Positions 37,654 to 64,000 of a stretch of 64,000 nucleotides of DNA are shown in pieces (the first letter of the stretch is position 1; the number at the start of each line of letters is the position of its first letter). Source of the DNA: Cyanophora paradoxa CCMP329 (lineage: Eukaryota > Plantae > Glaucophyta). Both the position numbers and the translations under genes were made by a program. Location: contig QPMI01000449.1 in the NCBI GenBank assembly GCA_004431415.1, positions 124,001 through 188,000 on the forward strand, read 5' to 3'. The notes under the pieces were generated by a model, which saw nothing but the letters and a program-made list of their open reading frames with translations, had not been told where the DNA came from and made no database searches.

Positions 37654-38034
37654 CCGCATTCACAATTTCTATGCGCACGCGCACGGAAGGATCGTTCATT
37701 TATTTATAATCATTCAAGCGAACTCAACATGCGAAAAAGATCGTTTAGCTTCATGATCATAGGTTTCTGGGTGGATTCAAGTGCTGCAGCCCCAGATTGG
37801 ATGTATTTGCGCAAGCAAGGATCGTTTGGCTGTATACGTAGGATCAGAATTTGAAACCTCCCACCGGCTGCAGGCCGTTGGCTTCAGGTAGAAAAGCGAA
37901 CGCGATAAAGCTACGGCCAACTAGTACTATAGCGCTAGCTTAGCTTGACATATAAGACTCACATCTCGCCGAGGAGCTCGCCGAGTCGCGATCGAGCTCG
38001 AGGCTAGCTAAGCCTAGGAGCCGCCACCGCCGCC

Positions 38035-41552: not shown

Positions 41553-41585
41553 CTGTGGTGAAGACAGCAGCAGCAGCAGCATGCC

Positions 41586-41646
41586 GCTCGAACCCACGAC
41601 CATTAGGTTAAAAGCCTAACGCTCGTACCAACTGAGCTACCAGGGC
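41586..41646 (-). tRNA. tRNA-Lys(UUU) positions 1-60 only; the 3' T-stem and acceptor strand are missing downstream
   Basis: GCCCTGG TA GCTC AGTTGGTAC GAGC G TTAGG CTTTTAA CCTAA TGGTC GTGGG TTCGAGC, then GGCATGC instead of CCCAC-CCAGGGC. Confidence 0.8.
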
Positions 41647-41908
41647 CGTCGGACCTCTGCCCGGTGGGCCCGACCGGTCCCGTTCTCCCCGCTGCACTCC
41701 GCCGACTCCGCGAGCGCTCCCGCCGCCCGGAGAGCGTTCCCGCCGCCCGGTGAGCGCTGGGCACCTCCATTTCGCGCCGTGCACGCCCCGCTCCGCCCTG
41801 GCGCGGCGTGAGCCCGCGCAACGCTGACGGCGGCCGCGAGACGGGGCGGCCCGGCGGCGAGGCCGCGAAGCGCGCTTCCACCGCTCCAGCGATCGCAGCA
41901 ACAGGACA

Positions 41909-44030: not shown

Positions 44031-44188
44031 GCTCGACAACTGGAGAGCTAGGCTTTATAATTTGATCATGACAAAAAGCAAAATACATATTATTACAAAG
44101 TTAAAGCAGATCTAAAGCGTCGATGCAATTTCGGTGGGAAATATAATATAGCCGCCTGATCATGAGTAGCATTCCAAAAATCTGATCT

Positions 44189-46788
44189 TCACCTCGACTT
44201 TCGGACGCAGGCCTCGGAGGATCTGGCGCACAGGCCCGGCGTTAAGAGGATAACGTCGGTGGGCAAATTCAAATCAACGCGGTCCAAGCGCACCTCGAAG
44301 GATTCACGCCAGGAGCTCGAGCTCGAGAAGAGCCTGACGGAGACGTGGAGCTCCCGCAGGGCGGGGAGCGCTGCAATCGCCGCCGCCTCCACGTCGCTGA
44401 GGGGCCGGCGGAGGCTGAGGCTGAGGCGGACCAGGGCGCGCCGCACGCCGGCCGATCCGAGGAGGGCGACGACGTCCTCGGCCGCGGATCCCCATGGCCA
44501 CTGCGCGGCGCCGGCGCCGTCACGCCGGGTGCCGAAATCGGCTGCGTGTTAAATATTAATCAGTGATACGTGTACAATGGCGCCGACCGCAAAATTTCGA
44601 ATTCAAACGAATCGACTTCATATATAGTTATAACGTGTTTATCTATATCATTTTTGAGACAAAAGAATGCTTAAGCTTGTTGCATGCAGAATTAGGGTGC
44701 GTAATTCTCGGATGATCATGATCGATATATCACGATGCATATGACTTACAAGACAGAATAAGGCCGAGCCTCTCCAGGCGGGGTAGGCTGCAGAGCGCCT
44801 GCGCCATCGCCGGGGCTGCCGTTCGATCGCTGCAGTCCCCGAGGTCCACGAAAGCGTCGAGCTCGCGGAGGTTGGCGATGCGGCCGATATCGCCGGACAG
44901 CACGGACGAGGGGGTGATCTGGAACTGATCATGATCGCGAGGTCAGATCTAGAGGGATATATATATATATAATGTTTTGTTTGCCCCTCGAGCTCGACAT
45001 CGATGTACGAACCGCCAATCCTTGGACTGATTCAAGGCTCGGGAAGCGGCTGAAGGCGACGAGGAGGGGATAGTTTAACCCCACAACCGTAGATCTGTTA
45101 GATTCGTTCGAAATCCGTGGAAACTGGCCTGCCCTGCGCGCGCACGGCAAACTTAAATTAAAATACATTATCGCGATCGGCGTCAAGCTTAAGCTTGAGG
45201 ATATCGCGATCGATGCGAACTCGTGATCAATCTATTTAATGTATATATAGCGAACAGCTGGAATAGGTAGAGCGCATGCTTACATGTACTGGTGGCCAAT
45301 CTCATACAGGGCGAAGGCTCGAAGGGTCTTTCCCGCGGGACCTTTGGCAAGCCTCTCCAAGCCGGCGATGATGGGGGCGTTTGGATCGTGGAGTTCGGTC
45401 AATGCTGCATACGCGAAGACAACTTCCTGCAGGTGCTCGAGGCGCGAAAGAGACGCCAGGACCTCCACTTCCGAACCGTCTTCGCACAATTCGGGGGCGA
45501 AGCTGATCGAGCGCAGGAGGGGGCATGCAGAGGCGATGGCCGCTGCAGCTGCTGCGTCGATGGCGATGCCTTCCGACAAGAGCCAGTCGCAGGAGAGAGT
45601 GAGCGAGCGAAGCTTGCCGAAAGGAGCGAGGGCGGCATGCAGATCGTCGGCCGCTAGCCTCTGCATCTCTTCTAGATCGATATCTGGGTCGTGGTGATCG
45701 TGGTCGGCGGTGAAGCCGATGTTGAGGCTTTCGAGTCTGCTCTCCGAGCCGTCCGGCGGCCGCAGCGCCCCCAGCACTCCGAACAGGAAGTCGTTGAAAA
45801 AGCCCGCCTCGAATTTGACATAGCCCTCCATGTACCCTCCGAGCAGCTCGAATGTCACCTCGCGCAGCTGCGCCGAGCCGCTGCAGCTGCGCGTGATCGC
45901 TGCGAGGAGTTTGCAGGCTGCCTCGACATAGCGCTGGCGGCGCGGAACAACGGGCGCGTCGTCGGGGACGTCGTCGTCAATATTCGAGCCAACGTTCTCG
46001 AACTTATCCAGCTGCAGCTCCGGCCGAAGCGCGACGCTTGAGCCTTCTCCAAGCCGCAGCTTTCGCTGATCAAAGAGCGCCGAAAGAGAATCGCATCCGT
46101 CCTCGCAGCTGAGCGTGGAGGATATCGATCTTCCGGGTGCAGGCCTGCCGAACTCGAGCTCCGAATCCGTATGCGTTTCCTCGTCGTGCACCTGGAAGCT
46201 CGAGGCATGTGTCTGCACTTGCTTCGAGAAGTCCTTGCCTCCGAACCACAGCTCAAGGGCGGTCCACTCTGTCTCCTCGATCACCCTCCGCCACCGCCTG
46301 CGATCGCGATCGGGCGGGGTTCGAAATTAAACTCGAGGCCTAGGCCTAGCTAGCGCTATAGGCTGCTTGGCATGCGCAGCACATACATGCATGTGAATTC
46401 TAGATTAAATAAAATAAAATTCAGATCGCATGCATATGGTTATACATAATTGATGATCATATGAAAACCGAAGCGCAGACCTGCAGACGGCGCGCAGGGG
46501 CCAGCTCGCCCGCAGCCCCAGCGCGTCGCACTTGAACATGCTGCTCATGACCGCGTCGGGCAGCGCATCGATATCGGATGCTGCCGATTCCGCGCCGCCA
46601 GCGCCATCTGCAGCTGCAGCTGTAGCTGCAGGCGCTGCAGCTGGCGATGGCTGCGGCGCGGCGCCGGCCGCGGATGCAGCTGCAGCTTCGAATTCGAAGG
46701 CTCGAGGAGATGCGGCCGCGGAAGTCGACTGCTCGCATGCGCAGAGAGAGAGATTCAGAGTGAGAATGGACTTGCGCCGCAATTGCAA
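44189..46788 (-). CDS. F-box / LRR-like protein, same family as 20648-22300; boundaries approximate
   Basis: IDALPDAVMSSMF..LGLRASWPLRAVCR. The large exon 45280-46290 has GVLGALRPP..SRLESL, ALAPFGKLRSL, ACPLLRSI and LAKGPAGKTLR. Confidence 0.78.
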
Positions 46789-47441
46789 GATTTATTAAGA
46801 TCGAATTCATGTATCTAGATATCGATCTAGCTAAAGAGCTCGAATAAGTATACGTATACGTATACGAATCGAACATCGATATTATGATATCTATTGCGCT
46901 AGCTATATAGCTAGACGTCGACGCGCATGCATATGCACGCGTACGCGTGCACGCACTGGTACTTGTGACAGGTGCAGCGCTAGCGCTAGCGGCGCGTCCG
47001 GCAGATCGAGAAGCCCTCCAGAAGCAATCTGAGCGCCGAAAGAGAATGAGAATGGACCCGCACCGTGAGAATGGACCCGCGCCGTACTATCGATATATCG
47101 CTACGTACTTTTGACAGGTGCACGGTTTCAGTCGCGGGGCCGTCTCCGGGGCCGTCCAGCCGACGACGCGGACCAGCGAGAGTGTCCGGGCCCACCGCGC
47201 TGCACGCCTCGCCATCCCGCTTCGAATTCATCGCACGCGAGGTATCACGCCTCGGACTGCTGCTCGATCGTGGTCAGCGCCGCCCGAGCCGCGCGCGCAT
47301 AGATGGCGCGCCGCAAACCTCTGAGGTCGCTCCTGCGCGCGCGTTCCGTTTGCGCGCGGGTCGACTTTCCGGAACTGAAGGAAGTGAATCGCCGTAGTAT
47401 GTACCCTAAAACCACGTGACGCGTACCCCCCAGACCCACTT

Positions 47442-48049
47442 TTCGGCGCAAGCCGTTAATTGATTCTAAGTTCCTGGCTCTCATACAAATTTCTGTTCGT
47501 ACGTCTCGCTGCACAAAGAACGTATCGCACGCCCCGCAAAGACGCTAAAAAGGTGGAGAAGACTCATATCTCCAGACGTTTTTCTCAGAAGTTGAAAAGA
47601 CGCCGTCGAAATGCGATTCCGGCTCCAAAAACAGCATATGCATGCTCACATAGTCCAATCTGATCGCGAATGTGTCGCTCAACACGACGCCCAATACAGA
47701 AGAGCGGGGGACTCCGATATCGATGTTCGCGAGTCCAATGAGGATGTAGTTGATGCGCAACATCATCAAAGTCGCCCCCACGCGCCAGGAGAGGAGCGCG
47801 GACATCGATCGGGTGGGGTACAGGGTATACAAGGTGGGTACTAACAAGCTCAAGCCGCAGCTGGATGATCAAGCTCGTTCAAGCTCGTTGAGCTATAGCT
47901 CAAGCTCGTTAAGCTATAGCTCAAGCTCGTTGAGCTTTAGCTCAAGCTCCGATTGAAGCTCGTTGAGCTTTAGCTCAAGCTCAACGCCGAGCCCATCAAG
48001 CTTCGTGGCTCAAGCTTAAGCAGCTCAAGCCACAACGGGTTGCGCCGAA
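47442..48049. mobile_element. Possible non-autonomous element bounded by 16-bp inverted repeats, with an internal ~21-bp tandem array
   Basis: TTCGGCGCAAGCCGTT (47442-47457) and AACGGGTTGCGCCGAA (48034-48049) are 15/16 complementary; AGCTCAAGCTCGTTGAGCT(A/T)T repeats lie at about 47870-47985. Confidence 0.35.
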
Positions 48050-48097
48050 CTTTTGGCCGAAGGCCACCAGCTTTATGTTCCCCGCCGCCAGCTTGCC

Positions 48098-48158
48098 GCT
48101 CGAACCCACGACCATTAGGTTAAAAGCCTAACGCTCGTACCAACTGAGCTACCAGGGC
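48098..48158 (-). tRNA. tRNA-Lys(UUU) positions 1-60 only, copy 2
   Basis: Same 61 nt as 41586-41646, followed by GGCAAGC. Confidence 0.8.
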
Positions 48159-48421
48159 CGTCGGACCTCTGCCCGGTGGGCCCGACCCATCCCGTTCTCC
48201 CCGCTGCACTCCGCCGACTCCGCGAGCGCTCCCGCCGCCCGGAGAGCGTTCCCGTCGCCCGGTGAGCGCTTGGCACCTGTCTTTCGCGCCGTGCACGCCC
48301 CGCTCCGCCCTGGCGCGGCGTGAGCCCGCGGAACGCTGACGGCCGGCCGCGAGACGGCGCAGCCCGGCAGCGCGGCCGCGGAGCGCGCTTCCACCGCTCC
48401 AGCGATCGCAGCAGCAGGGCA

Positions 48422-50562
48422 ATGCCGGCCAGCGGCGCGGAGGCAGCGGCCCCAGCGGCGCGGCTCGGCGACCTCCCCGACGAGCTCTTGCAGCGCGTCG
48501 CGACGCACCTCGGGCCCCTCGGGGCGCTCCCGCTGCTCTCCGTGAGCCGCAGGCTTCGCTGCGCGCTCGCCGGCGCGCCGTGGGCCGAGCTCGCGCTCGA
48601 CCTGCGGGCGGCCGCGGCCGGCGAAGACGGGACGACTGCGGCGCGGCGGGTCGCGGGGCAGCTGCGGCCGCGGGCGGTGAGCGCGCTGGTACTGAGCGGC
48701 GGGGGTGCGGCGGCGGTCGATGCGCTCCTCTCATTCCTCGCCGGCTCCTCCCCGAGCTCGAGTCCGCCGATGTCTTCCCCGCCCCCGGGTCCGGTGCCAT
48801 CCCGATCCGACCCGCTGCGCCCGCCCGCCCGCCGGGCGGCCCTCGCTCAGCCCCGCGCAGACGGGATCGCGGCCGCGCGCGCCGCCGCCGACGGCCTCCG
48901 GCGCTTCCCCCGCCTGGCGACCCTCAAGTGGTCCGCCGCCCCGCCCCGCCGCCCCGCCGCCCCCCCGCGCGGCTTCCGGCCGCCTCCGACGCGCTGCGCC
49001 CCAGGCGGGGCCCGCCGCTGGCCATCTCGGGCCTCCCCTCCCTCCGCCACCTCTCTATCCTCGGTGCGGTTCGCCGGACGCGCCTCGTACCCTGCCCGGG
49101 CTTGGCCAGCGGATCTGAGCCCCGGCCCACGGGCTCCTGGTGCGCGCAGGGACGGACATGGCGGAGGCCGACGTCCGCGCCCTCTGCGCCGCCTTCCCCC
49201 ACCTCGAGGCGCGCCCGCCCCGCCGGCCCCGCGGCCGCCGCCGGTGTTCCTTGGCCCCGCCTAACTAGTGGCTGGCCCCTGGTCCCGCCCCACCCCGCCC
49301 CGCCCCGCTCCGCCCCGTCCCGCAGTCTCTGGAGGGCTGGTTCGGGGACCGCGCCGCCCTCGCCGCCCTCGCGCCCCTCGCCGCCCTCCGCCGCCTCTCC
49401 GCCGACCTGGTGCCCCGTACCCCCCTCCCATTTCTCCCCCCGCCCCCTGATCCGGGCGGGTACAGCTGGAGCCGGACGGGCTTGAATCGGCGCTGGCGGC
49501 CCTACCCCCCGGCCTCTCCGCCCTCGAGCTCGCCAGCATCGGCTACGAGGTCCGCGCCGCGCTGTACCCCCACACCCACGCCCGGCAGCTCACCTGAACC
49601 GCTTCCAGAGCGTGTCCGCGACCGCCCTGCGGACGCTCCCGCGCTTCGCCGACCTGCGGTCCCTGGCGATCGAGGTGCGGCTCGAATCCGCGCGGCGCCA
49701 TTTCACAATTTCGCTCTGATTTGCGATCGGGCACAGGTGGACCGCGGCTCGGTGCCCGCCCTGGGCACCCTCGCGTCTGTACCCCTCCTCTCGGAGCTCC
49801 GCCTCTCCGTGCGCCTCGGGCACACCGACGCCGAGGTGACGCGTTACCCCCCTCAGGGTTCCCTCCCCACCACCTGCTGACCCGCGTACCCCGCCACAGA
49901 CGTTGGAGCTCGTCTCCGCTCTCTCGCGAGCGGTCGGCTCGATGCAGGCCCTCCAGGCGCGTAACCCCCACTCGCCCCCCGCGCTCCCGCCGCCCCCCAG
50001 GAACGCCGATGTACCCCAGGACCTGGACCTTGATCTGGACGACTGCACTGAGGAGGGATGCGACGGCCCCGCGCGCGCCGCGGCGCTCCTCGCCGGCTGC
50101 CGGCCCAGGTGCCGTACCCCCCTTCTTCTTTTCTCTGTACCCCTCACACGTGGGTGCCGTGTAGGTTCCGGCGGCTCGGGGGGTACTTCCAGAGCCCCTC
50201 CCGCCTCGACCCGCTGGCCTCCGCCTTCGCCTCCGGCCCCTTCCCCCGCTTGAAGGTGCGCTTTCGCGTACCCCCCTTCCCCAAAAGATCTTATTTTCTC
50301 GCCGCAGGAGGTCGAGATCACGTACGCGGCAGCCCGCTCCGCTCCCGGCGCGGAGTCCCTGTACCCCCTCCTCCGCGCTCTTTCCGCGATCCACGCAGCC
50401 ATGGCGTCCCTCGAGCTTGGCCCCCGCCCGCGCCTGCGGCTCCGGCTGGGGGCACCCTCGGAGCTGCGGGGCGGGCCCCTGTTCCCCCAGTGGGAGGCCT
50501 TCTGGCGGGAGGCCGCCCGGAGCCCGTTCGGCGTCGCCCTTCTGCACCCCGCCGCGCTCTGA
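48422..50562 (+). CDS. F-box / LRR protein, copy 2
   Basis: MPASGAEAAAPAARLGDLPDELLQRVATHLG; paralog of 41909-44030, with one C fewer in a run near 48750. Confidence 0.75.
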
Positions 50563-51365
50563 GCTCGACAAGTCGGCGCGCATCGACAACCGTTGAACAC
50601 GGCCGACCTCGAGGCTATAATATAATGCCGCTAGATGTACATTATACATCTATTGTGCTCAAATCAATAGCTCACATTCAAATACCAAATGTTCGATCTC
50701 CGCGAGCCAAATGTTCGCCAGGTCGGCGGAGAGGCGAGGGGCGCTAGGCCTAGGGCGGCGCGGGAAGAAGCTCCCACCCCTCCGGCCCGGCGGCCGACGC
50801 CCGGGCCCCGGCCGGCGACCGACGCCCCGGCTGCGCGCGCGGTCGGGGACCACGCCCCGGTGCGCTCATATCATGGAAGTTAAGGAGGGATCGCGATCGG
50901 AGAGGGAGAGGGCCACGTGCCCTCCCGAGGCTCGTGCGACTCGGCTCGAGGCACGAACTCGATGAGAGAAGATCCTCAAATCGATATCGGACAGGCCGGC
51001 GCCAGGCCCATAGCATGCGCATGGCCAGGGGCCCGGCCCGGCCCGGGCGCCTGCCTCTGGTCCGCGCCGGGCATGAGCTATAGCTAGCGATTGAAAGCTC
51101 GAACGCTAGCTATATATATGTGGGCCTTTGTGAAGCGTTGAGCTCTCGAGCTTGCCCCTTCGCTGTCAATGCATTGTTAACCCTCGGAGGTTGCATGAGT
51201 CACGCGTCGCGGAGGTTTGGGTGTTATATTGCGATCAGGTACACGCTGCACTAACAGGGGGGCTAGCACTAACCGACGCGGGGAGTAACAGCCGGTGTAC
51301 CCCTCGGGGGGCCTCCCGGCCTCTAACGATGCTCAGGCTCTAACTGAATGCTGTACCCCCCGCTG

Positions 51366-52102
51366 TTACTGCCCGAACCTTCCGAACTTGCGTAATTCGG
51401 CCTCGCCCTGTACCCAGTGGCTGGTGTCGTCCATCCATTCGCGTACCTCCCTCTGACGCTTGAGTGACTCACGCTGCTCGGGGTAGGGAGGGGGGCCTTC
51501 GAGGCGGGGTGGGGAAGGGGGTACGGTGGCAAAATTCAGCCACTCGGGGGTATGCCGAATTCGCCGTGAACGATCCTCTGCGGTGTGAAATACCGGTCGC
51601 TGCTCACGGCCAAGTGGAAGAACGCGCTCCTGAGCCCGGAGAGGAAGCGTGGTTGCATGAATGGCTGCTGGAGGGACTCGTCGCGCCAGGGGGCTACGAA
51701 ATCAATGATACGCTGCTGTACCTGCGCGGGCAGGGCAAGGATCTGGCTCTTGCGGTTCGCAAAGGCCGTCCACAGCGCTTGCAGGTCGGCCCAATCGCCG
51801 TTCAGATCCCTGCGTTCGCGCCTCAGGTACGATCTCGGGTTCTCTGTCATACCCATCAAGCCCGCGGCCCTGATCATCTCCCTGTCCGGGAGCTCTCGCT
51901 CGTCGTGGAATTCGTCTCTAATCCAGCGCACAAGGTAGAGCACGCGCTCCATGAAGTTCTCCGCCGGCGAGCCGCCCCCTGAGGACGTGCGCCTCCCCTC
52001 CAGCACTGCGTTCGCATCCTCCAAGTCCACGTTCCGCTGTCGAATCTCCCCGTCCAGGTCGCCGTTGTTGTACAGCACGTCGGACTCGCGTGTTCGCGCC
52101 AT
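51366..52102 (-). CDS. Orphan protein A (paralog of B); frameshift near 51540
   Basis: ORF 51536-52102 continues in another frame as KRQREVREWMDDTSHWVQGEAELRKFGRFGQ, stop at 51366-51368. Confidence 0.65.
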
Positions 52103-52136
52103 GCTCGCGGCTCGGTGAGAATTTATACCTGTACCC

Positions 52137-52969
52137 CTACTCGCGGTCGGGGTACCTGTCGCCGGGCATCAGCCTCGCGCGCTTCCGCATCTCCGCCTCC
52201 CCGGGTAGCCAGTTCTTCGGGTCGTTGCTCCACTCCTCCCATTCGCGTATGTCCCGTCTGACGTCACGCGGGGCGGGGCGTTTATCGGTGGGGCGGACGG
52301 GGCTGGCAGGGCCTGGCGCGGGGGTTGAGGCCCCTGTTCCACGAGTACTCGGGGTACTCTTCCCATCCCAGGGGTACCAGATTCATCGGAATTGGCTCAA
52401 CTTCGAATTGGGGCTTTTTGACGTGATAATCATAGTTTGTGACATACGCCGTCACAGCCGAGCGCAAGCGCGAGAGGTCGCGCAAATTTACGTCGTCCCA
52501 TTGCGAGTCCCTTGCCTTCGCGTACCACTCGAGGATTTGCATGCGAATGTGGTCCGGGAGGGTCGAGAGTATGCTGAGCTTGGAGCCCAGGGCGAACCAG
52601 ATGCGCTTGAACTCGTCGATAATCCTGCCCTCGTCGTGGCTCCGAAAGTAATGGGCACCGCCAGCGTTGTGATGCGAATCGAGCCACCCTGCCTGGGCCA
52701 GCTCTAGCACCGGCCAGGGTTGGCGCTGTCGATTCGGTCGCGAGGCCCGCTCAACCACCCAGCGTCTAAGGTCCTTGACCTGATCTATGAACTGTGCGCC
52801 GCCACTACCCTTGTCTGGTTGGTTCACTGTCGATTGTGCTTCGGGCCTTCGGGTCCTTCGCCTTTCGTCAAAACCGCACAACCGGCTTGGGCGTGTCTTA
52901 TACATACTCTTCTTCTTCTTCTTCGAACTGTGCGATCACGTCCTTGGGCGCTTCCTCTGCATCCGACAT
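52137..52969 (-). pseudogene. Orphan protein B (paralog of A); disrupted near both ends
   Basis: MSDAEEAPKDVIAQFEEEEEEYV-stop; core ORF 52282-52905; tail VRRDIREWEEWSNDPKNWLPGEAEMRKRARL, stop at 52137-52139. Confidence 0.6.
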
Positions 52970-53019
52970 TTGTAATTGCACACATCAAGAAATTCTAAAC
53001 GCTACTGCGAGGCTAAGCT

Positions 53020-53709
53020 ATGCATACCGATACAGATTGCGAGACTTTGCAACAGGGGAGCGCGGCGTGGCACGCGGCGCGCCGTGAAAAACTAACTGCA
53101 TCTAATTTTGCGGCTGCGTGCGGCATAAACCCCTGGAAATCCAGGGCCCGCCTGTGGGCGGAGCTAAGCGGGATAGCGGAGGAAAACAACTTTGACAACC
53201 CTGCCCTAACCTATGGGCATGATTATGAGCCCTTCGCGGTCTCTATCTACAAGGCACTGAACGATAACGTTGACATTAAACATACTGGACTGCACGAACA
53301 TAAAGAAATGCCGTTCCTCGCCGGTAGCCCCGACGGACTTATAGGAAATGATAGAATTTTAGAGGTGAAATGCCCGTACAAGGGCGAACTTTATGATAGA
53401 GTTCCTACTTATTACATGCCGCAGTTACAAGGACTTCTGGACATAACGGGCCGCGAGTGGGCCGAACTTTTTTGCTTCACTCCTCTGCGCGTGCAAACGT
53501 GGTACGTCAGGCGCGACGAGAGGTACATCGAGCTCATGAGGAAGTGCTTACATCTATTTTGGATGCACGTCAAGGAGGGCACGCCGCCCGAGCCCTACAG
53601 CGATCGAATGAAGTTAGAGAACCTCAGCGAGGAGCAGGCGGCGCTGCGCGAGTTTAAGTCGTACGCCCTCCTCTCAGAGTCTAGGCAGACTACTTCTGTC
53701 CCAGGCTAG
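53020..53709 (+). CDS. YqaJ-like viral recombinase / lambda-exonuclease family nuclease
   Basis: QGSAAWHAARREKLTAS, ALTYGHDYEP, FLAGSPDGL, LEVKCP and YYMPQLQGLL. Intronless and visibly more AT-rich than the host genes. Confidence 0.92.
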   Translation: MHTDTDCETLQQGSAAWHAARREKLTASNFAAACGINPWKSRARLWAELSGIAEENNFDNPALTYGHDYEPFAVSIYKALNDNVDIKHTGLHEHKEMPFLAGSPDGLIGNDRILEVKCPYKGELYDRVPTYYMPQLQGLLDITGREWAELFCFTPLRVQTWYVRRDERYIELMRKCLHLFWMHVKEGTPPEPYSDRMKLENLSEEQAALREFKSYALLSESRQTTSVPG

Positions 53710-53751
53710 GTCTTTGGAATCTTAATATAAATTTTCCGGGGACCCGGGACA
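53697..53751 (+). repeat. 50-bp palindrome with AT-rich centre, copy 1 (5-nt insertion)
   Basis: tgtcccagg[ctagg]tctttggaatcttaatataaattttccggggacccgggaca. Confidence 0.9.
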
Positions 53752-53849
53752 GGCCTTGTCGGACATGGCAATGTCAGAACCTTCCCGATCATCTAGATCT
53801 ATAATGATTCTAGGGAGGGTCCAGACACATCTCTTGTGCGGACCACTTC

Positions 53850-53899
53850 TGTCCCAGGTCTTTGGAATCTTAATATAAATTTTCCAGGGACCCGGGACA
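53850..53899 (+). repeat. 50-bp palindrome, copy 2
   Basis: tgtcccaggtctttggaatcttaatataaattttccagggacccgggaca. Confidence 0.92.
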
Positions 53900-54030
53900 G
53901 GCCTCGTCGAACAAACCTCTTCATGGGCCAAGATTTCGTGCATGCATCGGCCGCAGCTCATGCGAAAAATCATGTCTGATCCGATCCTGATCATGACGTC
54001 CTGCAAATTGAAGAATCGTCTGACCGGGAG

Positions 54031-54080
54031 TGTCCCGGGTCCCTGGAAATTTTATATTAAGATTCCAGAGACCCGGGACA
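54031..54080 (-). repeat. 50-bp palindrome, copy 3 (inverted)
   Basis: tgtcccgggtccctggaaattttatattaagattccagagacccgggaca. Confidence 0.92.
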
Positions 54081-54169
54081 GATCTACCTAGAGGGAACAT
54101 CCAAAATGCTGTACCCCTCCCACCCCGTGATCTTTCGAATTCAATCTGATGGGCCGACCTGAGTGACGG

Positions 54170-54219
54170 TGTCCTGGGTCCCCGGAAAGTTTATATTAAG
54201 ATTCCAAGGACCTGGGACA
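54170..54219 (-). repeat. 50-bp palindrome, copy 4 (inverted)
   Basis: tgtcctgggtccccggaaagtttatattaagattccaaggacctgggaca. Confidence 0.9.
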
Positions 54220-54285
54220 AGAGCAATGCATTTTCGCACGACGTTGACATAGCCTGATCACGAGAGAAAAATGTACCCCGATCTA

Positions 54286-57200
54286 TCAAATCCGCCGATG
54301 GAGCAGCGAGTAGCAGTCGCAGAACAGATCTTTCACCTCCAAGTAATCCGGCCCCACGCCAGCCCAGCGCTGCCTTGCTTGGCGCTCTGCAACATCTTCG
54401 AGAGTGTCTTCCTTGACCCACGTGATGCACTTGCGCTTGCGAGAGCCGGCGCCCTCCTGCCCTTCTCGGGTCCGTTTTTCCCCGGACCGGGCCCGTCTCA
54501 CCCCCATGTACTTTTCGAGCAGGTACTGAATCACCCGCCACGACTGCTGCGCAAGCTTGGCCTTCTCATTGTCCGATGCATCGAGTTTAGGGGCCCGCTC
54601 GTCCAGACTCTGCAGCACCGCGTAAGCCTCCCGGCCCTCCGGTGATGCGAGCGCCGCGTAGGCTTCGTCCGACCAAAGCATACAGCTGTCGCCGGCCAGC
54701 TTCTCGTACCCCGGCCCAAAAAGTCGCTTGAAAAGCTCCGCAACCTTCGAGACCCTGTGGTACTCAGTAGACGAGGCGATCTCGGCCATGTCGCCGCCGC
54801 GCTTCAGCACAAGGATGATCCGCGACATCAGCGGGATCGAGTAGAATGACTTCCACAGCCAGGCCACGTCGCTCTCGGTCAGCGCGCTTGCGTCCTTGGC
54901 CAGGAACGCAGCGGTCGCTAGGCGCGCGAGTGCAGCAACCTTCTCCACGTCGACCTTAGCAAGCGAATCGCGCGAATGCCACCAGGAGTCCAGCAGCATG
55001 TACAGTTCGGTGATGTCCAGGGCGGAGACTCGAGTACGTACTTGATCTCGCGCTGCCGCTGCTCCTTCTCCTCTTTCGGCCCCTTGTTTCCCTGATCCTC
55101 CGTGACCCGCACGTTCATCACGGCGCAGGTCGACAGCAGCCGCAGCCGCGCGGCCACGGCGAGGCGCCGCGTCGGCATGCCGGCCCGCCGACTCCCGTGA
55201 TGGCTCGCCTTCAAGTCCAGATAGCGCTGCGTGTCTGCAGTGCTAGCTCTCTCATCATCGCTCTCACGCCAGTGCGCGGTCGCCTCGCCCACGCTGACGG
55301 AGGGCGCGGACGCGCGGCTCTTGCGCACGGCGACGAGCAGGTGCTCTCCGCCGGGCGGCTCGCCGCGCCTGCGCAGCTTTCTCACTCGGAACAGCAGCTG
55401 CACGATGTCGTCGGCCTCTAGCTGCGCGGGTTCGGCCTGGAAAACGCCGTAGATCTTGTCAAAGTGCGCTTCCGGAAAGTCCACGCCCGCCCCGAGCGCG
55501 GACGTCGCGATGAGCACGTCGCAGGCCTTGTACGCGCCCTCCTCCGAGACGTCGATCGACACTACGCGGACCGGGCCCTCGTTCGTGAAGCGCACGCTCT
55601 TCTCCTTCGCCTGCCCAACGATGAGCCCAATTGTGAACGGTGCGCCGCTGCCGTCCTCGGGCCCTGCCTCGAGCTGAGTCACGTACTGAGCGCCGCCCAG
55701 GCTGAGCTGCTCCAGCGCCTGCTTCGAAATCTTGTCTGCTAGCTCATTCGCCTTGGCCGGCGTCTCCGCGATGATCATGGCCCGCGAGCGCCCAGGTCGG
55801 CACTGCACCATGATGTCCTTCTCGACGTGCGCCGGGCTGTCTGACACGCGCATCTTCCAGTCGCAGGTCCGGCGCGAGTTGTGCAGGAGCCCAAGGCGCG
55901 CCCCGCGCTCCAGCGCGGACTCCGCGAGGTACGCGAGATCGACCGGCCGGACGAAGCCGTCCATCGCCACGATGCGCGAGGCCTTCATCACGTTTCGCAT
56001 TAGCTGCACGCAGCGCGCGTTTCGGGGCATTGACCGCACGCCCATGTGCAGGCCGGCGGGTTCGAGGGTGCCGCTCGAAGTGAGGTGCTTCGTGAGGGAG
56101 GAGAGCTCGTCCAGCACGATCATCAGCGGCGCAGTCGACCAGCCCGCCCAGTCCTCAAGTACCTTGTGCAGCGAGTCGATCGTGATGACGACGCACCTGC
56201 ACTTCGGATGGCGGTAGCCCCACTTGCCGTGCGTCCCATTTGAGCTCTCCGGCGGCTTCTGAATGTCCATGTACAGCACGGCGTCCTCAGGCAGGCCCAC
56301 GTCATCCAGGCGGCGCTTCAGGTCGCGGGAGAAGGCGCGGCGGCAGGTCAAGAGGATCACGCGCCAGCCCCCTCGAGGGCTGGCTTCAGGTACGTCTCGA
56401 TGAGGGCCTGCGTCTTCCCCGTGTTGAGGCCCGAGCAGATGACGTCGACCTGGGCGGCCCCCGGCTCCAGCGGACCGAACGTGGAGGTGAGCAGCCCTGG
56501 ATCGCGCGTCAGGTAGTCCGTATCCACGACCTTCACGCAGTGCGGTGTCAGGCCCGTCGATTCGAGTGCGATCAGGAGCGACGGGAGGGCCACGTCGAGC
56601 GCCACGGGCTGGGACGGGTCCGTCACGTAAGACGCCGCCGTCTCGCTGCAGCTCCCGTCTCCAGCTCCCCCCTCCTGCTCCACCTCGACACCGTGCGCCC
56701 GAATCGCGATTCTGAGGGCCGGCGATCCTGGCTGATCGCTCATCTTCAGGGTGATTGTTCCGTCGGGCTCGACTGCAATGTCTTGAACGCGGCGGGGGTC
56801 ATTCAGGCTGATCTCAGTGCGCAACGCCGCCCCCGCCCGCCAGATCTCGTCCCTCACCAGCTTGTTCTCGCGCAGGAGGCTCAGGAACCGATCGAAGTCC
56901 GGGAGCGGAGCCTGGGCGTCGCCCGTCAAGCTCAGCGGGGGGTGGGGCGGCTCCTTGCGGGGGAGGAGCTCCTGGCGCCGCAGTCCCGAGCAAGCCCCCC
57001 GAGCTGCGGCGCCCTGCGGCCCCTGCGCCACCCCCTGCGCCGATCCCTGCGTCGGCCCCTGCAGGACGTAGGCTCCTGTGTCGTCCCCCCCGAGCTCCAG
57101 GCCGCTAGATGTCCCCAGCAGCCAGGTCGCAAAGGCGCAGGCCTCCGGGCTCTGCAGGACGTAGGCAGCCTTGAGCCCGTTGTGCGATGTTCGAGAGAAA

Positions 57201-57456
57201 GTGAGGCCTCCGAAGCTCTCCGCGCATGCACGGGCGGCCGCGGTGCTCGTCTCGTCTTCCGCGTCGGAGAAGTGCTTGGACATGATGTGCGGCGGGTGAA
57301 AGATACAGAAGACCATTCCGAGATCAGCGCTGCAGACCTTCTGGACGCAGACGAGGGGAAGCGAGTGAAGAAAAGCTCTTCTTGCGGGCTCAGGTCCACG
57401 GGAGTTACCCCCGGCAGACGGGAGAGTAGACTGTCGGAGCACGTCGAGGTGGCCAT
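54286..57456 (-). CDS. Replication origin-binding protein-like SF2 helicase (herpes UL9 / NCLDV OBP-like), split by single-base shifts
   Basis: Walker A VICSGLNTGKT; Ia ILLTCRRAFS; ITIDSLHKV; Walker B MIVLDELSS; III IVAMDG; V LIATSALGAGVDF..HFDKIYG; VI IVQLLFRVRKL. Frames join by adding one G at about 56370 (EGGWRVILL) and one C at about 55022 (PPLDITELYML). Confidence 0.85.
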
Positions 57457-57635
57457 GCTCTCGGGTTAGGCCTGCTGTTTCGTGTTAGGCTTGGAAAATT
57501 TTCAGTGGCACCGGCCGGAAACTGCACACCTTGAGAACTCGAACTCGAACTCCAAGGCTCGGTGAATTGGCGCTAGCTGCACTGTCGACGTCGACTGTCG
57601 GACCGTCGACGTCGGACTTCGGATGTCTCGTCTTC

Positions 57636-57685
57636 TGTCCCAGGTCTTTGGAATCTTAATATAAATTTTCCAGGGACCCGGGACA
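57636..57685 (+). repeat. 50-bp palindrome, copy 5 (upstream of the helicase)
   Basis: Identical to copy 2. Confidence 0.92.
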
Positions 57686-58653
57686 CTCTGGTCTGACGAC
57701 GCTGCAGCTCGAAGCGCTCAACTGGGTCCGGTTGACGGCACACAGGCTATCAGGGTGCCAGGCCTAGCCTAGTACGTAGGCTGACCGTCGGACCAGTACT
57801 GGCGGTTCAGTTGAAGCCGAGTACTACTAGCGCTAGCTATAGCGCCAGCGCTAGCTGTAGGCTAGTACTAGTACTAGATCGAGAGACGGTACGGCGCGCC
57901 ACAGCTAGCGAGCTCGCGCTCGCTCGCCTTTGCGCTGAAGCTTAGAAAATTTTGGGCTCACGCGGTCGTTCCACGTGTTCTGTCCGGACAACCTGTACCC
58001 CAGCTGTCCAGCCAAGTAGTCAGAGCTCTCCAATCCTGCGGCGCTTGGGCCCCGTGCTTCTCAGAGCACTTGATGGAGGCCAGCGTGTGCGTTCTGTGCT
58101 CTCGGGAGCCGCCGCTTCGTTCCCGCCGATGCAGAAGTGCGTCTCGGTCGGCGACCCCTCTCTCCGCGGAGCGGCTAGCTGGAGAGCTCTCCCGATGCCG
58201 CGCGCTTACACTGCGGTGCGCAGGCTCGGTTGCTGTGGCCGGCAACCTTCGAGAGCTCGATGGCACCCAAGCTGAACCACCTCGCCGCATCGCGGAGGTG
58301 CTGGCTCCCTCTTTCGCAGCTCTTTCGCTTACACTTACACTTTCGCTAGACCGTGCCGCACAGCCTCGCGCTCATTTCCCCCACGTTCGCAGAACTTCGG
58401 CGTCGGCGCAGGTTCCGGGATCTGCGACCGCGCCTCCCGCAGCTCGAGCCGGCGTCTGCGGCGACCCGCGCATGCATCTAGATCCTATTCTGAAACCCGT
58501 GCGTCGATCCGGGGTCCCGGGCTCGCGTTCCTGCGCCTCCCGGACCCTCACACTGCTCCTGTTTGCATCCTAGCTAAGACCTTCCTCGCCCGCAGCCGGT
58601 CTCGTCCTCGGCACATTGTGAGCGGCATCAGTGGAGCTGGAGTTCCGCACTTT

Positions 58654-59741
58654 ATGCAGGCCCGTGCGCCCTTTCCCGCCCCGCCCCGCCCAGCCCCGCC
58701 CCGCCTCGCGTGCGCTATAGCTAGCTAACCCTGTCGCGCGCGCCGCAGAGGGTTCGTAGCCGGAGGGCTCGCAGGCCGCGGCCCGGACACCTCCGCCGCC
58801 GTCGGCGCCGACATCGAGAACGGCCGGCTGGACGAGACCCTCGCCGGCTTCGGCTCCTGGTGCCGCCCCTACTCCTACAAGCTCGGCGGCGTCTGGCAGA
58901 CCTACATCCGCGGCATCGTCCCCAAGGCCCCGCTCTCCCTCGGCGAGAGCCAGCCGGCGCTGGAGGCGATCGCGATCCCCGTCGCCCAGTTCAAGGACCC
59001 GGCGCCCGACGTCGGGCCCTTCCTCGTCAAGCCCCACACCAAGGGCAAGGGCAAGCGCACCCGCAACTCGGCGCCGGCCTTCCTCCCGCCCCAGCCCCCC
59101 GCCACGGCCCCCCAGCAGCGCCCCGGCCAGCAGCGCATCGACGAGATGCTGCCGCGCCAGGTCCGGCCCCGCGTACCCCCCGCCTTCCCTGTACCTCCCT
59201 CCCCCTCGCCCCGTTCCTGATCCAAGGGCAGGGTACCTCCGCCTCCCCCGCGAGCGCCGACGGCCCCAGCCCCGTCCCCGGCCCCGGCGCCGTCCTCTCC
59301 GCGATCCAGGGCTTCGGGGCCCAGCAGGAGGCCGAGCGGCAGGCCCTGGCGGCGCGCCTGGCGCGCGAGGCGGAGGAGCGGCGCCAGGGCCGTCGGGCCC
59401 AGCGCCTCCAGCACACCCTCGCCTTCCGCGCCGAGCTGGAGGCGGGCTTCCGCGCCGGCCAGATCTCCGGCGCGGAGGCCTCGGAGCGCTGGCGGGCGTT
59501 CGAGGCGGAGACGGCGGGGCTGTCGAAGGGCCTCGGCTACAGCTACCGGCGCGTGGCCGTCCCGCAGTCCTACGCGCGGCGGGCGACGCTGGAGGCCTCG
59601 CGCGCGGAGATCGACGCGGCGGAGGACGTGCGGCGGCGACGGAGGCCCACGCCGAGACCTTCCGCCACCTCCACCACTGAGGCCCGAGGCGGTATTTTTT
59701 CTCAACCCTCCTCAAATCGGTCCCGCGATGGCCTTCGCTGA
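58654..59741 (+). CDS. Intron-containing hypothetical protein inside the element
   Basis: Exon ADIENGRLDETLAGFGSWCRPYSYKLGGVWQTYIRGIVP..DEMLPRQ is joined by GT-AG intron 59161-59231 to a coiled-coil exon. A further GTGCGC..GCTAAC..GCAG intron candidate lies at 58664-58748. Start is unresolved. Confidence 0.55.
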
Positions 59742-59919
59742 CAGCTACCCACAGCACTACACCCTTGGAGCCCTCGCCGCGACCCTCACCTGGCTCCTCG
59801 GCGGCACCCCCACCGCCTCGGCCGTCATAGGCGTGGGCTTCGGCTATGCCGCCAAGTCCCTCTACGCCCCCGGCTCCGTCTCGATGGCGACGGCCGGCAT
59901 GCGCCCCGCGGGGCGCTAA
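59728..59919 (+). CDS. Small two-TM protein (63 aa)
   Basis: YTLGALAATLTWLLGG and SAVIGVGFGYAA hydrophobic hairpin; ATG start. Confidence 0.6.
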   Translation: MAFADSYPQHYTLGALAATLTWLLGGTPTASAVIGVGFGYAAKSLYAPGSVSMATAGMRPAGR

Positions 59920-60037
59920 GTTAACTCTCCCTTTTCAAAGTTTTCCCAAGTTCATTCCCCCCTTTCCCTTTTCCAAGTTGCTCAAGTCCGTCGACGTTCC
60001 CTTTTAAATTTTCTTCATTCACGTTACACGTCTAAAC

Positions 60038-60535
60038 ATGCCCAACGCCGTAGAGAAGCTGTTGTGTACGGTGTTCAAATCGGACTCGCGCTGCAGCAAG
60101 ATCGGCGAGGCTGCCAAGGGCGGGGGCGGGGCGAAGGCCGGCGGCGGGGCGGAGGGGCCTAAGATAAGGGGCGCGGACCCGGCGCCGCCGGCGCTAAAGT
60201 CGATTAAGGCTGCGGGCAAGGGCCGCGGCGTCGGGCCCCTGCCCCTCGTGGCGATCGCCCCGGGCCAGCGCGAGGCGGCGCACGCGGCGACGGCGGCGCT
60301 GGCCTCGCAGCAGCAGAGGGAGGGGGCGCCGCGCCTGAGCGCCGGCCTCTGGTCGCAGCCTGCGCCCGCGCGCGAGTACGGCGTCAGCGCTTACTTCGAC
60401 GGCGCGAACGAGCTGAGCCGCCAGGAGATCTGGGCCTGGGAGGCGCGGCGCGCGGTCGACGGGCACCTGCCGTTGCTCGTGGCGCTCGGCGGCTCGCTCC
60501 TCATGGTCTGGTACCTGCGCGGCTTCGCGATTTAG
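60038..60535 (+). CDS. Hypothetical protein with C-terminal TM anchor
   Basis: ATG start; ends LPLLVALGGSLLMVWYLRGFAI. Confidence 0.6.
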   Translation: MPNAVEKLLCTVFKSDSRCSKIGEAAKGGGGAKAGGGAEGPKIRGADPAPPALKSIKAAGKGRGVGPLPLVAIAPGQREAAHAATAALASQQQREGAPRLSAGLWSQPAPAREYGVSAYFDGANELSRQEIWAWEARRAVDGHLPLLVALGGSLLMVWYLRGFAI

Positions 60536-60564
60536 ATAGATTTTCGAAGCGCTAGCTAGTAGAG

Positions 60565-60891
60565 ATGAGCTGGCTCGACGCGCTGCTCACCAAGACCTTT
60601 GGGCCCAAGGGCGCGCCGCGGCTGCAGTTCGGTGAGCTCAACGCCGCGATCGGCGCCACAGTCGAGATGAAGAACCGCGAGAACGTGCTGCGCGGCGACG
60701 GAGGCGCGTGGGCGGACATTGCGGCGGGCGCGCTGGGCTCCGCACTCACCGCACCGGGCAAGGCGGGCCGCGCGCTCACGGACGTGGCCGAGCGCTTCTG
60801 GCACTGGCTCAAGGTTGCCGTGGTCATCGCCGCAGCGGTTGTGGCGGGTCTCCTGGTGCTCGAGGCTCGCGCGCTATTTTCTAAACGCTAG
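60565..60891 (+). CDS. Hypothetical protein with C-terminal TM anchor
   Basis: MSWLDALLTKTFG...WLKVAVVIAAAVVAGLLVLEARALFSKR. Confidence 0.65.
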   Translation: MSWLDALLTKTFGPKGAPRLQFGELNAAIGATVEMKNRENVLRGDGGAWADIAAGALGSALTAPGKAGRALTDVAERFWHWLKVAVVIAAAVVAGLLVLEARALFSKR

Positions 60892-60907
60892 GTAAAGCGA
60901 GCGAACC

Positions 60908-61309
60908 ATGCCCCGCGGCGGCTCTTCCCCCGTGTCTCCTTCGCTGAGAACGAAGTCGCCGCTACCCCCTGGAGCCCGGCGTCAAGCTGGAGCGCGCGAA
61001 CGCAGTCTCCGTCAAGAAGGCCAAGCGCGCGCTGGTTCTAGAAGTCCCCAAGACCGCCTCGCAGTTCCTTCCCACGTCCGAGTACGACGGCACGGAAGAT
61101 ACGGAGAAGGTTGCATTCAACAAGCGCAAGACGTACAAGGCGATACGCGAGGGCCAGCTGCTGCCCACGGACGCGGTTCCCGGGCTGCCGGCACCACGGC
61201 CGGCGAGCTGCTCGTGCGCAACCTGCGCCTGCAGTACGTCTCCCGCCTCCGCCGCTCCAAGGCCAAGAAGGCGCGCCTGGACTCGGGCGATAGCAGCTCT
61301 AGCTCGTAG
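60908..61309 (+). CDS. Basic hypothetical protein, probably frameshifted
   Basis: An alternative frame reads LEPGVKLERANAVSVKKAKRALVLEVPK..FNKRKTYKAIREG; the end is LRRSKAKKARLD. Confidence 0.45.
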   Translation: MPRGGSSPVSPSLRTKSPLPPGARRQAGARERSLRQEGQARAGSRSPQDRLAVPSHVRVRRHGRYGEGCIQQAQDVQGDTRGPAAAHGRGSRAAGTTAGELLVRNLRLQYVSRLRRSKAKKARLDSGDSSSSS

Positions 61310-61324
61310 GGCTCTGTACTCAAT

Positions 61325-61608
61325 ACTACCAGTTCCTGTTCCTATCCCAGAGCACGACTCGGGTAAAGGGCACGGTCATAGCGAACATGAACTCGGCAAA
61401 CTTGGAGAAGTTCATGAGGGTCCCTAGGCGCGGGTCCTCCAGTAGATAGCTTCGCGCAGGGACTCGTAGATGCGCATGAGGGAGCGCTCGTTCTCGGTCG
61501 CGAAGGCGTCGGAGGGCTCGTCGGGATCCGGATCCGAGAGCTCCGAGTACTCGTCCGAGCTGCCAGCGCTCTCGACGCCTGCGGCCGGGTCGGGCGAGGG
61601 TCAGCCAT
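61325..61608 (-). CDS. Small acidic hypothetical protein, disrupted
   Basis: Frames give SDEYSELSDPDPDEPSDAFATENERSLMRIYESLREAIYW then MNFSKFAEFMFAM. Confidence 0.4.
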
Positions 61609-61634
61609 TCTTTGCTGGTAGAAGGGCTAGAAAA

Positions 61635-61975
61635 TCACGGGCGCCGGTACTCCATCGAGTCGCCGCGCCAGTACTTGTTGCCGGAGGCGAGCAGCTTCAT
61701 CGGCTCGCCCGTCGAGTCGTGCGTCCAGGCCTCGCCCGTCCAGACGGCCGTGCCGCCGTCCTCTAGCTTGAGGCGGTGGCCCGCCTCGAGCCGATCGCCG
61801 TTGAGCATGCGGCCGGCCATGAGCGCCAGGTCCCACTCGGTGAGGCCGCGCTGCTCTTCGGGGTGAGGCCGCGCTCGACGCGCTCGGGCTGGCGCGCCTC
61901 GCGCTCCATGCGGCTGAGGCCCACCAGGAAGAAGATCGGCAGCGCAAAGGCCATGAGATCTAGCAGGGCCTCCAT
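61635..61975 (-). CDS. N-terminally anchored small membrane protein, one frameshift
   Basis: MEALLDLMAFALPIFFLVGL..RGLTP joins EEQRGLTEWDLALMAG..WTGEAWTHD across a C run. Confidence 0.5.
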
Positions 61976-62276
61976 TGGGCAAGACTTAGAAAAGGTTCCG
62001 GCCAGGCCCGAGAGCTGCGGGCCCAGGCGCCGGGCGGCGTAGTAGAGCGCGGCGGCCGCGGCGGCCAGGATCAGAAGGCGCGGCGGCCGCGCGCGGCTCC
62101 TCCAGGGTCAAGTCCACGGTCTCTGGCTCGCGGGCCGGCGTCGCCAGGATCTCGGGCTCGGAGCTAAGGGACTTGGGCCCGCGGCGGCGGCGCTGCTTGG
62201 GGCGGAGGCGGCGGCGGCGGCGGAGAGAAGGTCCTCGGGCTCCTGCTTGATACCTGCGCAGTCAGTAAAGTCCATG
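61975..62276 (-). CDS. Small hypothetical protein with C-terminal TM, frameshifted
   Basis: MDFTDCAGIKQEPED.. followed in another frame by RLLILAAAAAALYYAARR. Confidence 0.4.
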
Positions 62277-62337
62277 CTTGCTGGGTACCTCGGAAAATTG
62301 TGGGAGGTGCCCGGCGGCTGCGAACGTAGGATGGGGG

Positions 62338-63765
62338 AGAAGTGACGCGGACGCGAATACGTCATAGTCGAATACGTCATAGTCCAAAACCTGGACTCGG
62401 GACTCGGCCCGGGCCCTGGGAGGGGGTACATGTTATGTCCAAATGTCCAAATGTCCAAATGTCCAAATGTCCAATTGAAAGGTTGCGGAGGTTGCGGACG
62501 CGTCACAAATACGTCATAGTCGAATACGTCATAGTCCAAAACCTGGACTTGGGACCTGGGCCCAGACTCTCGCCAAGTTTCAAATAATAATACTGTACCC
62601 TGTTATCTGCAAGCTTATCTTATCGTTATCGTGTCACCTATCCTATCCCGATCCTATCGCTATCCTTTCGCGATCGCTTGACTACACTATTGCATTCATT
62701 GCTTTTGAATGTAGTTAATGTCATAGCAACTTGAACATGATGTCATGATGATTTCAAGTTAAATACCGGGGTACGGTGTTTTTGTTCAAGTCTCTTTTTT
62801 TACCGGCAGGGCCCGGCCGAGTCCCGAGTCCAGGTTTTGGACTATGACGTATTCGACTATGACGTATTTGTGACGCGTCCGCAACCTCCGCAACCTTTCA
62901 GTTAATTAATTAAGCACTGGGCTAGCGCTAGGCTAGCTAGATATCGATACCAGCTAGCTAGCTCAGCTCTACCCTGCCCAAGTTGATGTATCTAGCAGCG
63001 CCTGCTCCTCTAAGTCTGCACCGCCTCCTCCTAGCGCTAGCGCTAGCTCGATACCGCCTCCAGACTTGATCTCCCTTGGCTTCAGCCACCGAAGGGGCTC
63101 AGGCCACCTCCTCCTGGTGAAGCCGGTATCGTTGCGCTTGTCCAGCTTGAGGTAGCGGTAGGGCGCCGGCGCCGGCCAGTCGGCCTGTGGCTGCTGGCCT
63201 CCTTGGCTATGTCCTTGGCCTACGCGGAAGCAGGTCGGCCTTGGCCTTGGCCTTCTGCAGAGGGCCCAGCGCCTTGAACTTCGGTGCCTTCGTCGCCGGC
63301 AGGGCCTTCGGCTGAGGCTTCGGTGCCTTCTGCGCCTTCGTCTTCGGCTGCGGCTGCGGCTTTAGCTGCTTCGATTTCGGCATACTTCTTGCTCATAAAT
63401 GAGAAAAGCGCTCGAAGTCGGCTTTTATCTCCTCCTTGGTCCAGGATGTCATCTGAGTCGGGTCACCTGAGAACGGCGCATCGAACGCCACGTGGAGCGA
63501 TTTGCAGGCCTGAGCTATCATTGGCTCCGGCCAGGCCAGCTCGATCAGCTGAAGGTAGATACTGAGGGCCTTGTCGAGCTTGCGCCCTGGAGACTAGCTG
63601 GGAGATGGCGGGCTCCATGGTACTGGATTAAGCAGCTAGCCGGGGTTCAGAAATGGCGCCAAGTCCGAGCTTATTTTTTTACCGGCGGGGCCTGGGCCGA
63701 GTCCCGAGTCCAGGTTTTGGACTATGACGTATTCGACTATGACGTATTCGCGTCCGCGTCACTTC
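62338..63765. promoter_or_regulatory. Four ~70-bp modules with tandem GACTATGACGTATT units in mirror symmetry around an AT-rich centre
   Basis: Minus copies at about 62338-62410 and 62475-62555, plus copies at about 62815-62900 and 63695-63765; (ATGTCCAA)5 at about 62435-62474. Confidence 0.75.
63207..63383 (-). CDS. 58-aa Lys/Pro-rich basic peptide, overlapped by a 58-aa acidic ORF at 63220-63396
   Basis: MPKSKQLKPQPQPKTKAQKAPKPQPKALPATKAPKFKALGPLQKAKAKADLLPRRPRT. Confidence 0.35.
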   Translation of the reverse strand: MPKSKQLKPQPQPKTKAQKAPKPQPKALPATKAPKFKALGPLQKAKAKADLLPRRPRT

Positions 63766-63869
63766 CCCCCCTCTTCAGGTGAGCGCTCACCTGACCCTCA
63801 CCTGAACGGCCTCAAAACCGCAGCCGCGCCGCGCCCTCGCTCACACTTCACAGCCAAGAGAAATCAAGA

Positions 63870-64000
63870 ATGTGCGCCCCAAGTACGAGACTGCTGCCTG
63901 ACCTTCGGCATCTTCGAGTACGAGGCCATGGACGAGGATCTCGACGAGAACGGCGAGATCTGCTTCAACTACTGCAGGCTGCTGCGCAACATCTCGCTGG
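63870..64000 (+). CDS. Hypothetical protein, 3'-truncated by the window
   Basis: Protein-like frame LTFGIFEYEAMDEDLDENGEICFNYCRLLRNISL downstream of the last repeat module; the ATG at 63870 is in a different frame. Confidence 0.4.
   Translation, partial: MCAPSTRLLPDLRHLRVRGHGRGSRRERRDLLQLLQAAAQHLA

Follow-up and report, generated by a model that had tools for sequence, protein, structure and literature searches.

Probable replacement of an SF3-type helicase gene by an inverted UL9-like helicase cassette in a repeated virus-like element of Cyanophora paradoxa

We analysed a 64,000-nucleotide stretch of the genome of the glaucophyte Cyanophora paradoxa CCMP329 (contig QPMI01000449.1, positions 124,001 to 188,000; hereafter the window), the last 12.9 kb of which are the left arm of an element that is repeated on dozens of C. 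paradoxa contigs. One slot of this element holds either a gene for a protein of about 1,500 residues that resembles the D5/superfamily 3 (SF3) helicases, or an inverted cassette encoding a superfamily 2 (SF2) helicase of the UL9/CyRepA1-like kind, and the two states appear to be mutually exclusive. The window copy has the second form, an SF2 cassette followed by an SF3 tail. We conclude that the SF2 cassette very probably replaced the original SF3-type helicase gene, and that the UL9-like helicase belongs to an exchangeable cassette rather than being the ancestral replicase. An earlier reading, made from the letters of the window alone (the sequence-only reading), had proposed an integrated virus-like replicon cut by the window edge. 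That proposal is supported, although none of the virus groups it named is confirmed, and it had overlooked the dozens of copies, the replaceable nature of the cassette, the SF3-like remnant at 58780-59680 and a spliced antisense RNA.

One line of evidence for replacement is the remnant. On the plus strand, at 58780..59680, the window carries the headless C-terminal tail, from residue 1230 onwards, of the ~1,500-residue protein, whose complete form has stretches that fit the SF3 motifs A, B, B' and C and an arginine-finger-like stretch, in the normal order. The frame at 58780 has 43 related C. paradoxa gene models across 42 contigs: 15 have a Walker A motif of the SF3 kind, 21 have the tail only (5 of type A, 15 of type B and 1 of type C) and 7 are unassignable. 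In other copies SF3 sequence stands before 58780, as seen from loose ends in short-read contigs. The tail begins at residue 1230 in the window and in all five type A models, at residue 1163 in 9 of the 15 type B models (the other six begin later or are mis-called) and at about residue 1151 in the single type C model, all three cut points lying just past the SF3 motor domain. Wherever the neighbours could be checked, an inverted SF2 helicase lies upstream of the tail-only models, and SF2 and tail models are at most four gene numbers apart on six contigs (tig00021257, tig00020693 and tig00021017 for type A; tig00000983 and tig00000443 for type B; tig00021762 for type C). A fourth SF2 subtype lies near other genes of the element. 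Between helicase and tail, the cassette spacer (57690..58779), as deep in reads as the helicase, has its homologue in the type B spacer, with a translated match to P0065 (E = 1.5e-10).

The four SF2 subtypes are only 45-86% identical to one another, whereas one 96-residue tail sequence, 100% identical throughout, is found in the window and in models of three kinds (four full SF3, two type A and four type B). Another tail variant is common to copies of the SF3, B and C types; the comparison kept 33 of 44 tails. Because old, diverged cassettes thus sit in young, reassorted flanks, the exchange appears to have been recurrent, and because the SF2 copies retain a headless SF3 tail, its direction appears to have been from SF3 to SF2.

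The left edge of the repeated element lies at approximately 51107..51140, since a single-copy short-read contig that matches 50504-51136 exactly (depth 118, run X3) ends there and the depth then jumps, to 5,100-6,300 in the contigs to the right of the edge in the same run. In two DNA runs the arms of the element reach 43-76 times, and the type A helicase cassette 6-12 times, the depth of the single-copy flank, ratios to be taken as a rough guide. The window proteins have near-identical paralogs among the C. paradoxa gene models. The sequence-only reading had remarked on an abrupt switch from intron-dense host genes to compact open reading frames and had asked for read depth; the genes here are indeed compact and multi-copy, not single-copy intron-containing orthologs, and the element is far deeper than its flank. 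A chimeric assembly is unlikely, although none of the listed short-read records spans the left edge with 31 letters on either side. A repeat search found no partner of the left end within the window. A short run of TA and then TG at 51111-51120 may mark the target site and the end of the element. The drop in G+C content at the element has no diagnostic value, since equally low values occur elsewhere in the window.

On the right the element runs on past the window, which ends within the start of a 93-residue gene (63870..64000, plus strand; 13 paralogs) at a depth still about 50-75 times that of the host flank. To the right of 64000 it is known from fused gene models alone. Several of these have, after the last window gene, a conserved protein of about 240 residues, which might be a T7-like single-strand binding protein; searches of Pfam, PHROG, NCBIfam, PDB and phage collections returned nothing useful for it. 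On tig00000194, two tail models (g14739 and g14737) stand two gene numbers apart, one of them running into antisense SF2 sequence, which suggests tandem or nested copies.

The SF2 helicase of the window (54286..57316, minus strand; about 1,000 residues, subtype A) narrowly passes the cut-off of the Pfam family Herpes_ori_bp (PF02399; E = 1e-4, 21 bits against 20), and alignments show motifs I, Ia, II, III, V and VI with the UL9-type signature. When a profile of its relatives was compared with PDB, the sole matches at E<1 were four UL9 chains, at a weak E of 0.6-0.69. The UL9-like helicase of the sequence-only reading is therefore upheld at the Pfam level, yet the best profile match is CyRepA1 and not herpes UL9 (11 of 14 rows, best E = 1.1e-15, in a comparison that included no eukaryotic-virus SF2 profile). 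With the CyRepA1 profile NF042913 the scores of 41-55 bits stay below the family threshold of 200 bits. All 14 matches of a tblastn search against plasmids are cyanobacterial, 13 of them labelled CyRepA1 or DUF3854, at a coverage of 6-8% and E of 0.009-0.9, and motifs V-VI align to CyRepA1 with 27-28 bits. The DUF3854 primase domain, present in the Nostoc CyRepA1 protein, has no match in the window frames or their paralogs, and Pfam and profile searches matched no primase family to the N-terminal part of the helicase. Two AlphaFold models, the second of the SF3-like protein, are of low confidence (predicted local distance difference test scores of 33 and 32).

In the assembly the helicase is read in three frames. 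Short-read contigs over it show zero substitutions and one extra base each near 55019 and near 56367, so that both frameshifts are long-read errors and the gene is intact; its reading as a pseudogene is accordingly rejected. Several public gene models (P0039, P0047, P0054, P0058 and P0068) were built antisense to the SF2 helicase, so that the public annotation hides the real gene. A search of 1.84 billion representatives with the helicase query P0003, which lacks part of motif I, returned six matches, all from Cyanophora. Relatives of the element outside Cyanophora were found neither in viral contigs nor in metagenomes or prokaryote genomes, a weak negative given that the tools used require close matches.

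The inverted cassette is also crossed by a spliced RNA. Five RNA-like runs from four studies (X15 and X16-X19), whose RNA status is a guess backed by joints that are absent from three DNA runs, define 11 plus-strand GT..CAG introns of 48-97 nucleotides over 55034..58595, antisense to the helicase; eight fall inside the helicase gene, the other three in the spacer, two are present in all five runs, and one is deduced from a joint with 12 letters between. Two of these introns excise the codons of helicase motifs I and V, and hence they cannot be sense introns. The joined RNA over 55128-57330 has stops in every frame, which, together with the splice signals, argues for a non-coding antisense transcript. 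A protein-coding gene opposite the helicase was considered and rejected on account of these stops. Rfam gave no match. Such an RNA may keep the helicase quiet. A further GT-AG intron (53485..53551, minus strand) belongs to an RNA antisense to the neighbouring nuclease gene, its joint being present in X15 and X16-X19 and absent from the three DNA runs.

This nuclease, of the YqaJ/lambda-exonuclease family (53020..53709, plus strand), is well above its Pfam cut-off (YqaJ, E = 2.6e-28, 99.6 bits against 22) and above that of TIGR03033 in NCBIfam, and it matches phrog_434 (E = 8.6e-40), as the sequence-only reading had supposed. Four palindromes of about 51 nucleotides, with GC-rich arms and an AT-rich centre, follow at 53701..54219, and a fifth lies upstream of the helicase start at 57635..57685; they were found by repeat search, pattern and hairpin prediction. 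Their pattern, which four of the five fit, occurs nowhere else in the window and in none of 100 shuffles, in line with the earlier claim of a repeat family confined to this region, and their hairpins have z-scores of -2.4 to -6.0. We regard them as candidate origin or recombination sites. In other copy types a second minus-strand intron, one that takes out the first palindrome, is suggested by loose ends of the RNA-like runs at 53595-53758.

Taking everything together, we favour as probable, with some reserve, a small DNA virus, endogenous and of Polinton-like or mriyavirus grade, whose SF3-type helicase gene gave way to an inverted SF2 cassette. Copies of the element would replicate with either helicase, as the mutual exclusion suggests and as in mriyaviruses, and homologous recombination in the shared flanks, namely the YqaJ gene on the left and the SF3 tail on the right, would carry the cassette from one resident copy to another, perhaps with the help of the YqaJ exonuclease that the element encodes. 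The palindromes that flank the helicase probably serve it as origin or loading sites, a parallel to herpes oriS. Plus-strand transcription that formerly served the SF3 gene would still cross the inverted cassette; the host would splice the resulting RNA, and as long as the element stays integrated the helicase would be dampened by it.

Several points weigh against this scenario. The assignment of the ~1,500-residue protein to SF3 rests on motifs: its profile matches are weak (AAA_22, E = 0.002-0.006 in eight models), and searches of PDB, NCBIfam, phage and plasmid collections gave no match. The three cut points could reflect nested deletions after one insertion, the typing of copies is drawn from gene models of an error-prone assembly and not from DNA, and summed depth is not equal to copy number. 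The strand of the RNA is deduced solely from splice signals, and overlapping transcription is common in the C. paradoxa genome, according to the available part of PMC6704402, so that a read-through free of function is possible. Of 156 Polinton-like elements catalogued in C. paradoxa, none has a PF02399 match in the accessible material of PMC12220804, and for this reason our family may fall outside the catalogued set. Finally, neither a capsid, a packaging ATPase, an integrase, an HUH nuclease nor a terminal repeat is seen in the 12.9 kb. The sequence-only reading had likewise recognised no capsid, pPolB, packaging ATPase or integrase in the window, and this stands at the Pfam level in 26 frames. 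A minor capsid and an rve or tyrosine recombinase are likewise not seen in the window, and VLTF2/VLTF3, RuvC and HUH endonuclease have no match in the window frames or paralogs.

One might speculate instead that the SF2 cassette is a selfish mini-replicon, an initiator helicase with palindromic origins that homes into the SF3 gene, deletes its motor and seizes replication. The palindromes that bracket the helicase, the three cut points just past the motor domain and the four old subtypes in young flanks would all fit, and repeat-bracketed, possibly self-mobile replicases have been proposed elsewhere (available text of 10.64898/2026.10.13.758929). We nevertheless hold this to be unlikely: the cassette was found to contain neither a nuclease nor an integrase, the SF2 models that can be checked adjoin the element's own genes, as expected of an allele, and the loose end in the RNA runs suggests that the first palindrome is also present in other copy types. 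It is equally doubtful that the cassette, with palindromic origins of its own, is a parasite of the virus derived from cyanobacterial plasmid replicases, which has repeatedly invaded a glaucophyte endogenous virus and excised the SF3 motor, the virus or the host countering with spliced antisense RNA over its gene.

Two further explanations concern the nature of the element itself. It might be no virus but a transpoviron-like transposon that replicates itself and has no capsid; the lack of any structural gene in the window, the high copy number and the absence of free relatives from the viral and metagenome collections would agree with this. We consider it improbable, since the block of small membrane proteins would be hard to account for in the absence of a particle and since the window holds no transposase or pPolB; moreover, the element is visible only in part. 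Insertions of giant viruses are reported for C. paradoxa (in the available portion of PMC12344493), and YqaJ nucleases and UL9-like helicases occur in Nucleocytoviricota, so that the region might be a fragment of such an insertion, later duplicated passively. However, dozens of dispersed copies with a fixed gene order and a switching helicase slot are unlike passive duplication, and no giant-virus core gene such as PolB, capsid or VLTF3 is seen in the 12.9 kb. We hold a giant-virus origin to be very improbable, and the endogenous small DNA virus remains our preferred reading.

The remaining genes of the element are small. To the left of the nuclease, two minus-strand frames, ORF-a (51536..52102, 188 residues; paralog tig00020824_g14274), which probably extends beyond a frameshift, and ORF-b (52282..52905, 207 residues), are likely tandem paralogs, matching each other in BLASTP with 27% identity over 64 residues (E = 2e-4); ORF-a has no match in Pfam, PHROG or NCBIfam. 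To the right of the SF3 tail lie four plus-strand genes of 63, 165, 108 and about 134 residues (59728..61309), two with a clear C-terminal hydrophobic helix and two falling in clusters of 10 and 11 near-identical models. They are followed on the minus strand by three or four genes broken by frameshifts (61342..62276), one with a clear N-terminal hydrophobic helix, in a region with indels relative to the short reads. The run of short transmembrane proteins noticed previously is thus borne out by hydropathy for three of five candidates (Kyte-Doolittle 2.56, 2.15 and 1.66), the other two being weak (1.36 and 1.27). Further on, a frameshifted minus-strand gene with a K/P/A-rich stretch (62972..63560) belongs to no known family.

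In a second repeat family, three copies that include a tandem 15-mer surround an AT-rich stretch (62333..62903), and a fourth, at 63674..63771, is a 98% inverted match to 62333-62416. Its four copies form inverted pairs and are, as claimed earlier, confined to this region, although a copy is not itself palindromic (z = -1.17). It is a candidate promoter or origin. Every copy has two TGACGT motifs 15 nucleotides apart, which presumably parallel bZIP-type promoter elements. Just downstream of the outer copies come gene blocks that diverge.

On the host side, a GH85 endo-beta-N-acetylglucosaminidase gene is split over several frames at 39390-40809. Just left of the element a 2.5-kb host gene is duplicated with 94% identity (41577-44039 and 48089-50571); it has no Pfam match and by eye is F-box/leucine-rich-repeat-like. 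Three stretches (7000-15000, 31000-38000 and 44000-48000) have a lower G+C content (0.51-0.64) and local repeats; no Pfam match was obtained in the five frames tested there, and they are possibly other decayed repeats.

Swaps of replication modules among small eukaryotic DNA viruses are, to our knowledge, documented chiefly by trees and by rare contigs. In C. paradoxa a replicase exchange has likely been caught in progress inside one genome: both slot states and the junctions can be followed, along with what is left of the displaced gene, across dozens of copies in a single culturable alga, whose long-read genome and RNA data make the mechanism of exchange readable from DNA and testable. The element would represent a further virus-like family from a glaucophyte, would provide an instance of an integrated replicase overlaid by spliced antisense RNA, and would hint at a connection between the replicases of cyanobacterial plasmids and the UL9-like helicases of viruses. 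We found no prior description of a family with YqaJ and SF3/SF2 helicases, or of its antisense RNA; the element lists behind PMC10120064 and PMC12220804 may include it.

Among known systems, the herpesviruses offer a lambda-exonuclease-type nuclease, UL12, comparable to the one near the element's helicase, and UL9, to which motifs I-Ia and V-VI of the helicase align with about 11 bits only. Herpes oriS is a palindrome with an AT-rich centre, like those of the element. In contrast, no other herpes-like gene was found in the element, and its host is an alga. The cyanobacterial plasmid replicase CyRepA1 is the best profile match of the helicase, which nevertheless falls far under the family cut-off and is devoid of the DUF3854 primase domain; in the plasmid pSYSA the antisense RNA covers a small upstream gene and not the replicase (PMC9978351, in the part available).

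The element also shares features with the Polinton-like viruses of protists, which have many integrated copies per genome, frequent turnover of replication modules and repeat-bracketed replicases. Replicase turnover and such bracketing, with one element bearing a Cyanophora assembly prefix, are described in the available sections of 10.64898/2026.10.13.758929, and module switches are discussed in those of 10.64898/2026.06.19.733378; adintovirus-like genes have been noted in Cyanophora (PMC8502044, as far as its accessible text goes), whereas the main text of PMC10120064, in its available part, does not name this alga. Unlike these viruses, the part of the element seen has no capsid, ATPase, rve or tyrosine integrase or terminal repeat, and YqaJ goes unmentioned in the accessible portions of the Polinton-like literature searched for it. 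A further parallel is with the Mriyaviricetes (Yaraviridae and Gamadviridae), for which the available text of 10.1101/2024.02.29.582850 describes SF2 (UL9-related) and SF3 helicases that are mutually exclusive and mark different viruses, together with a PDDEXK/YqaJ-like nuclease and no DNA polymerase seen. Their SF2 helicase carries an AEP primase, whereas ours matches no primase family, and no HUH, VLTF or capsid gene is seen in the 12.9 kb. Moreover, the two states that are distributed there among separate viruses occur here in one genome, together with a remnant of the SF3 gene.

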